Assembly (NCBI RefSeq): GCF_024223415.1
Contig: NZ_CP100500.1
DNA length: 64,000 bases
DNA from: Escherichia coli
Lineage (GTDB): Bacteria > Pseudomonadota > Gammaproteobacteria > Enterobacterales > Enterobacteriaceae
Reading direction: 5' to 3' (one strand)
Shown here: piece after piece, positions 7,224 to 27,326 of the stretch
How positions within the stretch are numbered: position 1 is the first letter of the stretch
Layout of the letters: each line of letters opens with the position of its first letter
Notes under the pieces: generated by a model
Told to the model about the DNA's origin: nothing
The model's input: the letters and a program-made list of their open reading frames with translations, nothing else
The model's database searches: none
Made by a program: the position numbers and the translations under genes

Positions 7224-7325
7224 ATGAAAGAGAATAAAGTACAACAAATCAGTCATAAACTGATTAATATCGTTGTTTTTGTCGCAATTGTAGAATACGC
7301 CTATTTATTTCTCCATTTCTATTAA
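7224..7325 (+). CDS. ykgR: small hydrophobic protein, 33 aa (YkgR-like)
   Basis: ATG with GAGGAAG ribosome-binding site; encodes MKENKVQQISHKLINIVVFVAIVEYAYLFLHFY. Position upstream of ykgM matches K-12 as recalled. Confidence 0.55.
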   Translation: MKENKVQQISHKLINIVVFVAIVEYAYLFLHFY

Positions 7326-7648
7326 TAACGGCAATAAACTGTTCACTTCAGTGATATTTAAAATATGCATCCTCTCCCTTTTTGTAAGTAATTATTATAT
7401 CCGTGGGAGAGGAATACACGCTGTCAGGTAATCAATCATACTGCGATAAATCATCGGCCAGTAAAGTGGAGATAACCTCAATCCATACTCTCAGCGAAAC
7501 TATCATCAATCACTCATCCAGGCGTTTATGGGAGCGTCGCCAATGGCTGTTAACAATGCCAGACTTCCCCGTTGCGGAAATTCCACATACCACTAATGGT
7601 CACAGGGATTGGGTGTTGAAATGATCCGGATGAGCATGTATCTTTATG

Positions 7649-7941: not shown

Positions 7942-8081
7942 TGAAAGTCCTTAACTCTCTGCGTACCGCAAAAGAACGCCATCCAGACTGTCAGATTGTG
8001 AAGCGAAAAGGACGGCTGTATGTGATTTGTAAATCTAATCCACGTTTTAAGGCCGTTCAGGGTCGTAAGAAAAAACGTTGA
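7941..8081 (+). CDS. ykgO: ribosomal protein L36 paralog
   Basis: 46-codon [49 protein letters not shown]; start overlaps the ykgM stop (ATGATG). Below the track size cutoff; read from sequence. Confidence 0.85.
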
Positions 8082-9096
8082 TTTAAAATTCGACGAATTA
8101 ACGATATTTGTCTGATTAATAATCAGACCGGATTAATGTTGGTGTATTTATTACACCAGCATTAATTTTCCTGGGGATGTATCTTCCTGTTCATTTAAGG
8201 TCAACTGCCTGACGTTTCTCTCCGAATATTCCATTATATTAATGTTGACTTGTTGACCAGCTTCGCCCCTGTATGCTGGCATCAACCCTCTTTTAGACTG
8301 AACACGCCACTCAGTTTCCTCCCTTTGCGACGCAGCCTGCATTTACACTCAAACTGTTAAGATGATAAATGTGGTAAATCTGTTGGTACTGACATAAAAA
8401 CGTTTACGCCACAGGAACGGCCTGATCCACCGGTAACCCCATCGCCGACGTTCGAGTGCCAGTTAGAGTAACGCGCACAGATGACTGAATGCAGTGCCCT
8501 GGCAAAGAGGCCATCGTTCCTGTGACAACTGGCAGTCTTCGTTTAACTTCACTTAATTTGGCTCTTAGGGGGCTTACCGGACAGATGACATACTTACACC
8601 TGTTTAATTTTTCATCACTTATTGGGATGAACACCCATAACCATTTTGTGCGGCATGTTAATCCATTAAAACACCTTACTGATTGGCAAATCATCTTTAA
8701 TTATGACTCATGATAGTTTTATATTCTATTTCTTATCATTTAAACTTGTTTTTTTACTAGTCCATTACACAACATATTAAGACTATTCCTAACACCTCAG
8801 GGCAAAGTTCCTGGCTAATATAAAATGCAAGTAAGAATTGAACGTTATATTGCCAATAACCTTATGAAACTGAATGTCTTTTTCTTCTTATCAAAAAAGC
8901 AATATTTTCATTTTTTGTAAATATTGACTTAACCATGGAATTCATTTTCTGTTCACATATTGACACTCATCAGGAAAAAAACATAAATTTAAACCTAATC
9001 GAAATAATTAAAACTTAATCTCGTTTAACCTATATTGATATGTGCTACGTATCTTATTTACTTCCGATTTACTAAAGAAACTGAATGTACCTGTAA

Positions 9097-24129: not shown

Positions 24130-25266
24130 TTATTTCAGTTTGGTCTGGAAAAATTGTTCGAACTTTGCGAAAGGTATTTTTCCGGCCACGTTATCGTACA
24201 GGTCCACGTGATTTGCCCCTGGTACCACTACCAGCTCTTTGTCGTTACTGCCAACCGCCTTGTAAGCATCTTCAGCAAAATAGCGTGAATGCGCTTTCTC
24301 ACCGGTCACAATCAGCGTCGGGATGGTGATTTCACTGGCGTAGCTCAACAGCGGCATATTCATAAATGACAGCGGCATCGTTGCCGTCCACGCCCCGGTA
24401 GAGTTAACGGAACGTTCGTGGAAGCCGCGCGGCATGCGATAGTAGTCAAAGAACTCTTTCAGTACCGGATGAGGATTTGCCGGCAGCGTTTCTGGCAGAA
24501 TACGCTCGCCCGCACTGACCTTGCCGTTGCTATCGACATTAATATCATGACCACCGTGAGCGAACGTTCCGCTCTGCGCATCCTTCCAGCGCTGTTCATT
24601 CAGATATTGCAGAACAGCACGACGGTCGGCGGTAGAATAACGGTCTTCGCCATCCCCCACACCATGGCCCATCGCCCGGCTCATGTCATACATCACGCTG
24701 GTAGCAACCGCTTTAACGCGGGTATCCATCGCCGCGTCGTTCAGCGCCATGCCGCCCCAGCCACAAATACCGAGCAGCCCGATACGGTTGCGATCTACCT
24801 CTTTTTGCAGCCCTAAGAAATCCACCGCCGCGCTGAAATCTTCAGTGTTGATATCCGGTGAGGCGACGTTTCGCGGATAGCCGCCGCTTTCCCCGGTGTA
24901 AGAAGGATCGAACGCCAGGGTAACAAACCCTCGTTCCGACAGCGTCTGCGCATACAAGCCGCTGGATTGCTCTTTCACCGCGCCAAATGGCCCACTGACC
25001 GCAATCGCCGCCAGCTTGCGATCGCCACGGTCTTTAGGCAGGTAAAGATCGCCCACTAAGGTGATGCCATATCGGTTCGGGAACGATACTTTACGATGAT
25101 CGACTTTCTGGCTCTCGGCGAACGTTTTATCCCATTTATCTGTCATGGACACAGGGGCATTAGGATTGGTTGAATCAGCATAACTCATTGTCGTGACTCC
25201 ACTTAATGATGCGAAAAGCAGCATGGCCGGCATCGCGGTTTTTAGCGTTCGGGTGAAGGCTTTCAT
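24130..25266 (-). CDS. secreted alpha/beta hydrolase (dienelactone-hydrolase-like)
   Basis: Start at the ATG with GGGGA ribosome-binding site (MKAFTRTLKTAMPAMLLFASLSGVTTMSYA signal peptide); IGLLGICGWGG and KELVVVPGANHVDLYD motifs; homologous to the ORF at 4444-5364. Confidence 0.8.
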   Translation of the reverse strand: MKAFTRTLKTAMPAMLLFASLSGVTTMSYADSTNPNAPVSMTDKWDKTFAESQKVDHRKVSFPNRYGITLVGDLYLPKDRGDRKLAAIAVSGPFGAVKEQSSGLYAQTLSERGFVTLAFDPSYTGESGGYPRNVASPDINTEDFSAAVDFLGLQKEVDRNRIGLLGICGWGGMALNDAAMDTRVKAVATSVMYDMSRAMGHGVGDGEDRYSTADRRAVLQYLNEQRWKDAQSGTFAHGGHDINVDSNGKVSAGERILPETLPANPHPVLKEFFDYYRMPRGFHERSVNSTGAWTATMPLSFMNMPLLSYASEITIPTLIVTGEKAHSRYFAEDAYKAVGSNDKELVVVPGANHVDLYDNVAGKIPFAKFEQFFQTKLK

Positions 25267-25452
25267 AAAAATCCCCATAAAAAACAACAGAGAGATACAG
25301 GTTTCCGACGGACAACGCTGCGGTGCTTTACTTTGATGGGGTCATTATAGTGAGCAGAATTAGTGCTGATTAGGGGGCGATTAATGCTAAGATTAATACC
25401 ATATTGTTATAAATTAATGCGAAGATTGCCGGCATGAAGGGGGGATGTTTCA

Positions 25453-26337
25453 ATGGCGAAAAGGGAGAACTACAACGAGCTGTACCTGTTTATGCAGGTG
25501 GTGCGAGAAGGCAGCTTTACCGCAGCGGCTCAGCGGCTGGGTCTTGCTCAGTCAGGAGTCAGCCGTTCTGTTCGCGAGCTTGAAGAAAGGCTGGGCGTCC
25601 AGCTGCTGGTGCGCACCACGCGTAAACTGTCGCTGACGCAAGCAGGCGAGCAGCTCTACCAGAAGACGGCATCTGGATTTGAAATGTTAGATCTTGGGCT
25701 TGCCACGCTGGCGCACTATCGAGAGACGCCCTCCGGCACGGTGCGTATCAATGCCAGCCAGCACGCGATTGATAAATGCCTGCTGCCAAAGCTGGCGGTA
25801 TTTAAACAGCGATATCCTGATATCCGGCTTGAACTGATAAATGAGAGCCGGTTCGTCGATATCATCGAGGAAAGATTCGATGCAGGTGTCCGCCTGGGGC
25901 CTGAAGTCGGCCAGGGCATGGTCGCGGTACGCATCACGCCCGATATGGAGATGGCAATTGTGGGGACTCCGGAACATTTTCGTCGCTATGGTTTTCCGCA
26001 AACTCCGGCGGATTTAAAGGCGCATCCCTGTATCGCCTATCAGTTTGCCGACGGCAGCGTATACCAGTGGGAACTCAATCAGGATGATAAAAAAATCACT
26101 CATCGCCCTGAAGGGCAATGGGCCCTATCCGACAGCTATATGGAAGCAGAAGCCGCCCGGCTGGGCCTCGGATTGGCCTATGTTCCTGTTGAACTGGTCG
26201 CGGATGATTTAGAACACGGTAAGCTTATCAGAGTGTTGCAGCGTTACAGCCTGCGAATGGAGGGATTGTTTCTCTATTACCCTCATCGCAACGTCTCCCC
26301 CGCTCTGCGGATGGTCATTGATACATTGAAAATCTGA
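25453..26337 (+). CDS. LysR-family transcriptional regulator
   Basis: 294-aa ORF with LysR helix-turn-helix; divergent from the secreted hydrolase gene. Confidence 0.85.
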   Translation: MAKRENYNELYLFMQVVREGSFTAAAQRLGLAQSGVSRSVRELEERLGVQLLVRTTRKLSLTQAGEQLYQKTASGFEMLDLGLATLAHYRETPSGTVRINASQHAIDKCLLPKLAVFKQRYPDIRLELINESRFVDIIEERFDAGVRLGPEVGQGMVAVRITPDMEMAIVGTPEHFRRYGFPQTPADLKAHPCIAYQFADGSVYQWELNQDDKKITHRPEGQWALSDSYMEAEAARLGLGLAYVPVELVADDLEHGKLIRVLQRYSLRMEGLFLYYPHRNVSPALRMVIDTLKI

Positions 26338-26562
26338 ACGTTAACAACGACCGACTCTTCACTGTGCAATATTGTGTCAGGTAGTCACTCTGCGTTCAAT
26401 TCCAGGGGCCGCTTTGAGCGAGAAAGAGCGGACTTATCTGTACAAGGGGACTATCCAGCAATGGAGATCACCCAAAAGAAAAAACTACCTGGCTCCCTCA
26501 ACAACCTTCATCCGGGAATTTAGCCTCAATCAACATTTTTATATCTGTCAGGTTACTTCATT

Positions 26563-26836
26563 ATGAAAACCGATCAATATCGTTGTTTTTGTTGTAATAA
26601 TAGAATACGCGTATTTATTCCTCCATTTCTATTAATAACGGCCATAAACTGTTCACTTCACTGATATTTAAAATATGCATCCTTTTCCTGCTTTTCAAGT
26701 TGTTCAGCGGCGTAAGAAAACGTATTAAATATGAATTCGACGATTTAACCATTTCTGTCTGATTGGTAATCATCTGTGATTAATGCTGGTCTATTGATTA
26801 CGCCAGCATTAACCGCTTAGGGATGTATTCTTCCTG
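26563..26836 (+). repeat. degenerate copy of the ykgR region and the ykgO-downstream hairpin element
   Basis: 26576-26683 is about 93 percent identical to 7266-7373 (3' half of ykgR plus flank); 26734-26836 is about 75-80 percent identical by eye to 8087-8189. The ykgM-ykgO module between them in copy 1 is absent here. Confidence 0.7.
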
Positions 26837-27047
26837 ATCATATACAGCCCTCGAAAAAGAGAGAAAATAAAACTGTGTCCAATATTACTCTACCACTCCA
26901 GACCGAAGCATCGGTAGAATTAGCAGAACGACTGGTACAATAGATTGGGATAGCGTCATTTGTCAGGTATTCCATTGCCTGACAAATGACAATTTTGAGT
27001 CAATAGACGTGCTTCTTGATCATGTCTTAAAAATTATACCATGAGCC

Positions 27048-27326
27048 TTATGAAGCATCATTTTTACTGACTGGTGTTAACTTTGCTATCATATAAACTC
27101 TGTTCTTAAAAAACGCGCCCAGAATTTTATATGATTTCCCTTGTTTTTCTGCCTGTAAAGAAATTTCTTTTTCAGTGCTGTTAATGGTTGAACCGACGGC
27201 AGTAATCGTTTTGGCGACGCTACTGAATGATAATAAAGACAGTGCAACCACAACAATTAAAGAACAGATAGTATTCACGCTAATTCTCCTGACAATTGAG
27301 AGGATGAGTTTTATATATAAAGGCAT
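27048..27326 (-). CDS. small secreted protein, possibly DUF1471 (YhcN/BhsA-like)
   Basis: 92-aa ORF with hydrophobic leader (ICSLIVVVALSLLSFSSVA) and a short mature domain with KQGKSYKILG resembling DUF1471; start codon uncertain. Confidence 0.4.
   Translation of the reverse strand: MPLYIKLILSIVRRISVNTICSLIVVVALSLLSFSSVAKTITAVGSTINSTEKEISLQAEKQGKSYKILGAFFKNRVYMIAKLTPVSKNDAS

Follow-up and report, generated by a model that had tools for sequence, protein, structure and literature searches.

Escherichia coli has a documented small inner-membrane protein, YkgR (b4671; 33 amino acids), for which post-translational cross-linking to SRP has been described (PMC7549839). The literature on ykgR is concerned with the K-12 gene only. 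In the DNA studied here (64,000 nucleotides of E. coli contig NZ_CP100500.1, hereafter the window), ykgR is followed on the + strand by ykgM, ykgO and ykgL, in that order; ykgM and ykgO, for type B L31 and L36, form an operon with a terminator hairpin. About 19 kb further on, an accessory segment that adjoins tRNA-Thr (thrW) and proA carries a second ykgR-like sequence, hereafter copy 2, which starts 229 bp beyond a LysR-family gene (25453-26337). The names ykgS, ykgU and ykgV designate unrelated loci in the literature.

The closest described counterparts of copy 2 are pseudogenes in RefSeq. PGAP flags the same 69 nt as a pseudogene in 13 of 13 RefSeq E. coli genomes fetched, for example as ACYX32_RS22685 in GPEC1446 and AO055_RS32805 in O157:H7 WS4202, with the wording 'incomplete; partial in the middle of a contig; missing N-terminus' and under the name 'small membrane protein YkgR' in 12 of the 13 genomes and 'hypothetical protein' in strain C122. 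The record of GPEC1446 is 100% identical to copy 2 of the window, and the remnant itself is no different.

The family model for YkgR, NCBIfam NF041474 (membrane_YkgR, equivalog; 33 positions, cut-off 40 bits), scores the true protein at 78.1 bits over positions 1-33 and the copy 2 remnant at 37.6 bits, below the cut-off, over positions 14-33 only. YkgR is distinguished by an uninterrupted reading frame of about 33 codons that opens with a start codon and the polar N-terminal MKENKVQQISH, and by purifying selection on the coding frame; copy 2 has neither. Its clear homology is combined with a disabling lesion that is present in all 14 alleles compared, with neutral substitutions and with diversity not below that of the flanking non-coding DNA, which are the marks of a pseudogene.

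Here, we examine what the preserved part of copy 2 signifies, in particular whether its peptide is under selection, as the initial annotation of this DNA had suggested. Positions 26563-26844 are very probably the non-functional wreck of a second ykgR-ykgM-ykgO(-ykgL end) module that was constrained, then disabled, and is now drifting.

Copy 2 and the decayed ykgR-ykgM-ykgO module

A six-frame motif search places NIVVFVVIIEYAYLFLHFY with its stop codon at 26576-26635 (+) and MKENKVQQISHKLINIVVFVAIVEYAYLFLHFY with its stop codon, which is ykgR, at 7224-7325 (+). In pairwise BLASTN, 7257-7389 aligns with 26567-26700 (block 1; 118 of 134 identities, 88%, E=8e-38), a block that comprises the 22 C-terminal codons of ykgR and runs on for about 65 nt beyond the stop codon. 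Both searches bear out the ykgR-like copy with a preserved C-terminal peptide that the initial annotation had reported, and the homology reaches 26567, two codons (K-P/L-I) 5' of the stretch delimited there. The features of the two loci are as follows.

7224-7325, + strand: ykgR, functional and either the parent or a paralogue of copy 2; codes for a small membrane protein of 33 aa
7675-8081, + strand: ykgM-ykgO (type B L31 and L36), 3' of ykgR; the counterpart is deleted from copy 2
26563-26568, + strand: ATGAAA, probably the old start codon of ykgR followed by Lys2, one base off the remnant frame
26563-26664, + strand: 33-codon ATG-frame ORF MKTDQYRCFCCNNRIRVFIPPFLLITAINCSLH, a frameshift by-product with no evidence of being a gene
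26564-26566, + strand: TGA that closes the ykgR frame immediately before the remnant
26567-26635, + strand: ykgR pseudogene remnant (copy 2), YkgR residues 12-33 and stop (KPINIVVFVVIIEYAYLFLHFY), enclosing 26576-26635
26636-26700, + strand: non-coding DNA copied from the 3' side of ykgR (counterpart 7326-7389), within the 88% block
26687-26728, + strand: ykgO (type B L36) remnant, the final 13 codons, PAFQVVQRRKKTY with stop; resident equivalent 8040-8081
26729-26844, + strand: remnant of the DNA 3' of ykgO, including the terminator hairpin and the match to the ykgL 3' end (ykgL coordinates taken from K-12 MC1061)

Copy 2 reads ATGAAAACCGATCAAT, and ykgR reads ATGAAA, then GAGAATAAAGTACAACAAATCAGTCATAA, then ACTGATTAAT. 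The 29 nt GAGAATAAAGTACAACAAATCAGTCATAA that follow ATGAAA in the gene are absent from copy 2, so that the ATG at 26563 lies one base out of the ykgR frame; the loss of about 29 bp from the 5' half and the off-frame ATG had been described correctly. The junction of the loss is a run of A at 26566-26569, the same in 14/14 alleles, all of which have ATGAAAAC and, abutting the 5' end of the remnant, the TGA (within ATGA). Upstream of the copy 2 ATG, no similarity to the ykgR promoter or Shine-Dalgarno sequence was detected; the match of ATGAAA therefore rests on six bases, and a 29-bp deletion is the simplest reading of the gap, not a proven one. Compared with ykgR, to whose 3' two-thirds and 3' flank its DNA is 88% identical, copy 2 lacks codons 3-12, has an off-frame ATG and a TGA-closed frame, falls short of the family cut-off and shows neutral evolution.

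The similarity does not end with ykgR. Directly after block 1, a second block (26692-26844 against 8045-8197; 75% identity, E=9e-26 in BLASTN) begins, in the resident locus, within ykgO. The ykgO remnant has changed at 6 of its 13 retained residues, and the arms TTAATGCTGG (26780-26789) and CCAGCATTAA (26803-26812) match the terminator hairpin of ykgMO. After copy 2, ykgM is absent and only the 13-codon ykgO remnant and the terminator are found: besides the 29 bp within ykgR, about 655 bp are gone between the short repeats TTTT(G)TAAG and TTTTAAG. Relative to the ykgM-ykgO operon and terminator, copy 2 keeps the ykgO 3' end and the hairpin in the same order and orientation and lacks ykgM, most of ykgO and the spacer before ykgM. 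With 13 codons from the end of ykgO and the terminator still in place, copy 2 is a wreck of the whole ykgR-ykgM-ykgO module. The ykgO, terminator and ykgL remnants at 26687-26844 are unannotated by PGAP and are a small addition to the existing annotation.

The surroundings of copy 2 are variable. Strain-specific indels occur within 26340-26900, among them an 18-nt deletion near 26427-26444 and a 9-nt deletion at about 26683-26691, and in some strains the distal part is replaced by an AbiEii/AbiGii toxin gene, all of which fits an unconstrained, decaying region. The divergent LysR regulator and alpha/beta hydrolase pair upstream (24130-26337) has counterparts with 84-90% protein identity in Kluyvera, Citrobacter and Klebsiella, with an MFS transporter as a neighbour also in Kluyvera and Klebsiella; as its downstream neighbours are genus-specific, the pair behaves as a portable unit. 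No ykgR-like DNA was found beside the LysR orthologues in these three genera. On the other side, a 92-codon ORF (27048-27326, -), a hypothetical protein according to PGAP with a sub-threshold resemblance to YdgH/BhsA/McbA (13 bits), is deleted or cut by IS629 in several strains, and about 60 nt past its 3' end lies a hairpin with a perfect 15-bp stem (26955-26990).

The copy 2 locus is present in 921 of 5,426 complete E. coli genomes (about 17%, or one in six) and is divergent, with 548 matching records below 95% identity over 561 bp. The true ykgR is present in 5,075 of the 5,426 genomes, at no less than 95% identity in all matching records except five. Over the tested 561 bp, the window is 100% identical to O78 strain 3, GPEC1446, NCTC10444 and NCTC9112. 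K-12 does not carry copy 2, the yagP fragment abutting paoD there, and published K-12 ribosome-profiling data sets therefore cannot speak to it. The locus is thus an accessory, highly polymorphic segment next to thrW, and this too is a small addition to the annotation. A separate observation concerns the resident gene: in O157:H7 TT12A (NZ_CP038496.1, L014 175-275) the true ykgR is itself frameshifted by a change from T5 to T4 within GTTGTTTTTGTC and is a pseudogene in PGAP, which would leave a strain devoid of any intact ykgR unless the change is a homopolymer sequencing error.

Old and young differences between copy 2 and ykgR

Compared codon by codon over the last 19 codons and the stop, copy 2 and ykgR differ at six bases, exactly as the initial annotation had counted: four differences are synonymous (GTC/GTT, ATT/ATA, GCC/GCG and TTT/TTC) and two are conservative replacements (GCA/GTA, A to V; GTA/ATA, V to I). 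Polarised with outgroups, GTC is derived on the lineage of the living E. coli ykgR, while ATA and GCG are derived on the copy 2 stem, as is a change of ATT to ATC just 5' of 26576; TTC is probably derived on this stem as well, with Escherichia sp. E1V33 also having TTC there. ATA, ATC and TTC are common to 14/14 alleles of copy 2 and GCG to 13/14, the O166:H15 allele having GCC. The two replacements are real, but they are confined to the window's own lineage and are young.

The copy 2 stem has 4 synonymous and 0 non-synonymous changes, which is improbable under neutrality (P=0.002-0.005) and differs from the 3:8 among present alleles (Fisher P=0.026). The ancestral peptide of the copy 2 alleles would have been exactly YkgR residues 12-33. 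That all the old differences are synonymous and that the ancestral peptide would equal this part of YkgR is explained by copy 2 having long been under purifying selection. For comparison, when true orthologues are set against E. coli ykgR over the same 22 codons, synonymous to non-synonymous changes stand at 6:1 in Escherichia sp. E1V33, 3:1 in E. albertii and 3:0 in a third, Escherichia-like contig. Measured by block divergence, copy 2 is about as distant from E. coli ykgR as is the E1V33 orthologue, and its ratio of block 1 to block 2 divergence is the same as in comparisons of true orthologues, which indicates constraint for most of the history of copy 2. We also considered a two-step history, with ykgMO lost long before the inactivation of ykgR, as the source of the difference between 88% and 75% identity, and rejected it because orthologues show the same block ratio.

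The present alleles give a different picture. We compared 14 of them, namely the window and 13 others (L001-L013) sampled over the full identity range of the 921 carrier genomes. The remnant is variable at 11 of 69 sites, with 3 synonymous and 8 non-synonymous changes in the ykgR frame (P/L, N/I, I/T, A/V, I/T, V/I, F/S and F/L), a small sample that was read off directly, with no formal tree. This ratio fits the neutral expectation (synonymous fraction 0.21-0.27; P=0.42-0.60; class-matched permutation P=0.58). The ykgR-frame peptide KPINIVVFVVIIEYAYLFLHFY is shared by the window, GPEC1446 and A30; the commonest allele group has KLIIIVVFVAIVEYAYLFLHLY, the O157:H7 allele has KPINTVVFVATVEYAYLSLHFY, with three polar replacements in the hydrophobic core, and further alleles have KPINIVVFVAIVEYAYLFLHFY, KPINIVVFVAIVEYAYLSLHFY and KPINIVVFVATVEYAYLSLHFY. 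The C-terminal hydrophobic, membrane-spanning segment INIVVFVAIVEYAYLFLHFY is kept in the window with two conservative changes, whereas other alleles have polar replacements in it. Nucleotide diversity (pi) is 0.054 in the remnant against 0.028-0.037 in the surrounding non-coding DNA. These observations are consistent with copy 2 alleles that now drift neutrally.

The selection on the peptide at which the initial annotation had hinted is accordingly recognizable in the past, on the copy 2 stem, and not in the present. A wider comparison of substitution patterns, the check that had been proposed there, returned several polar replacements in the core and nothing that departs from neutrality.

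We suggest the following history. A second Escherichia ykgR-ykgM-ykgO(-ykgL end) module near thrW would have worked as ykgR under purifying selection; a deletion of about 655 bp would have taken the ykgR-ykgM spacer, ykgM and most of ykgO, and a 29-bp deletion would have taken codons 3-12 of ykgR and left the rest off-frame behind a TGA. The inactivation would be older than the common ancestor of the present alleles and would have been followed by neutral drift, and copy 2 would have been lost from most lineages, including K-12. We infer both the order of these events and the former functionality of copy 2. The module itself may have come from an internal duplication or by transfer from another Escherichia lineage.

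Searches for intact or expressed forms, and other readings

An exhaustive HMMER search with YkgR against 1.84 billion representatives returned nine clusters, all of them Escherichia ykgR or artefacts, and among these nine there was no copy-2-type protein with another N-terminus. Four clusters were rejected as YkgR variants: P0006 and, probably, P0002 and P0007 as adapter read-through and P0008 as a contig edge. P0006 owes its odd C-terminus to a Nextera adapter (CTGTCTCTTATACACATCT) translated at the end of a contig (L020 4079-4106), and the unrelated tails of P0002 and P0007 probably have the same origin. A scan of GTDB species genomes yielded the ykgR orthologues of E. albertii and Escherichia sp. 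E1V33 and otherwise two contaminant mini-contigs only, with no intact copy 2 in another species. The mini-contigs (L021 and L022, 403 and 264 nt), one from Sulfoacidibacillus thermotolerans Y002 and one from Alkalicoccobacillus porphyridii P16, code for a protein with 100% identity to YkgR of E. coli and are almost certainly E. coli contamination of both assemblies.

It is extremely improbable, in our estimate, that a hydrophobic peptide of 22-23 residues continues to be produced under selection. In favour of this reading, synonymous differences from ykgR make up four of the six (nominal binomial P=0.038), and routes to such a peptide can be conceived: a +1 slip on AUG-AAA-A, where the AAAA run would in principle let tRNA-Lys shift its pairing to the +1 frame; initiation at AUC or AUA as a near-cognate codon; or read-through of the TGA from a 64-codon frame that, in the window, lies open 5' of it in the same, ykgR, frame. 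The synonymous differences are old, however, and the young changes mostly non-synonymous; the common O157:H7 allele has polar replacements in the membrane-spanning core, and the diversity of the remnant is not below that of its flanks. The signal rich in synonymous changes records selection before inactivation and selection on the living partner, and so is no evidence of present function. No ATG, GTG or TTG follows the TGA in the ykgR frame in any of the 14 alleles, only a poorly placed AGG lies upstream, and the 64-codon frame is interrupted in O157:H7, where 1 nt has been inserted. Present expression, which the initial annotation had thought possible from a non-canonical start, is thus not supported by these closed frames, and its alternative of a fusion to an upstream frame in other strains was not found, the TGA and the same AAAA junction standing directly 5' in every allele.

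Queries engineered to be in frame, with AAA for AAAA in four haplotype backgrounds, had no perfect match in the 5,426 complete genomes, and their best matches always show a one-base gap. The sole in-frame sequence found is in a human-gut metagenome contig, OQDE01001258 (L026 4494-4562, -), which reads ATGAAACTG, with AAA and not AAAA, and has an open 23-codon in-frame ORF MKLIIIVVFVAIVEYAYLFLHLY; its coverage is only 1.66x, so that a homopolymer error is as likely as a rare revertant. No + strand promoter was predicted upstream of the remnant and no terminator within 26340-26900, the counts in these scans being at background level. The part of the supplements of the O157:H7 Sakai RIBOseq paper that was accessible lists no matching ORF, which is weak negative evidence.

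The frameshift might instead have created a new small gene, the ATG-frame ORF MKTDQYRCFCCN(N/S)RIRVFIPP(F/S)LLITAINCS(L/F)H, under selection of its own. Families of genes remodelled out of frame have been reported in the E. coli pangenome (PMC8788219), and copy 2 resembles them in having a frameshift that lays a new frame over an old coding sequence. The ORF is intact at 33 codons in 13/14 alleles, and variable sites cluster at its third codon positions (7:7; raw P=0.012-0.036 over six frames). This excess is suggestive as it stands but not significant after correction for six frames, nor with mutation classes matched (permutation P=0.08), and it is accounted for by T<->C transitions at second codon positions, which are rich in T in the former hydrophobic codons. 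The stop codon is lost in one allele, the ORF has a weak Shine-Dalgarno sequence and promoter prediction gives nothing on the + strand. In a collection of 15 billion proteins that does include the equally short YkgR, this exact sequence does not occur; there is no NCBIfam or Pfam match either, although local Pfam misses true YkgR as well. Compared with the remodelled families, nothing indicates that the new frame of copy 2 is expressed or selected, and we hold such a gene to be highly improbable. Somewhat more broadly put, the wreck could be partly alive, through a 23-residue tail made at a low level (by +1 slip or in AAA revertants) or through a young protein in the ATG frame; there is little chance of this.

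Two further readings dispense with a protein product. Gene conversion by the resident ykgR about 19 kb away, occurring occasionally and with no selection ever acting, could have kept the peptides similar: block 1 of copy 2 is nearer to E. coli ykgR (88%) than to the E. albertii orthologue (77%), and the O166:H15 allele has GCC, the ykgR state, at an otherwise fixed difference. With three synonymous differences fixed in 14/14 alleles and a fourth in 13/14, there has nevertheless been no wholesale homogenisation of copy 2 by ykgR; conversion would tend to mend the 29-bp gap, which was never observed, and as the ratio of block 1 to block 2 is that of true orthologues, ordinary constraint suffices. 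We judge this reading very unlikely. It is harder still to believe that the stretch is conserved as non-coding DNA or RNA, whether by serving as a regulatory site, by giving rise to a small RNA or by terminating the LysR gene. The 3' flank of the remnant does differ from that of ykgR at only 5 of 55 bases, but Rfam has no match at the copy 2 and ykgR loci except one at chance level, neither a terminator nor a + strand promoter is predicted within 26340-26900, allele diversity is as high as in neighbouring spacer DNA, the locus is missing from 83% of E. coli genomes, and the LysR module occurs in other genera without copy 2 DNA.

We therefore return to the reading of copy 2 as the remains of a module that was once constrained. 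By the evidence of its alleles, the preserved peptide appears to be a fossil of past constraint and not a sign of present function. The case carries a caution, in that an excess of synonymous differences between a gene and a dead copy can mislead, and such changes need to be polarised and set beside polymorphism. The finding itself matters little: copy 2 is, as far as its sequence tells, an ordinary and already annotated pseudogene.
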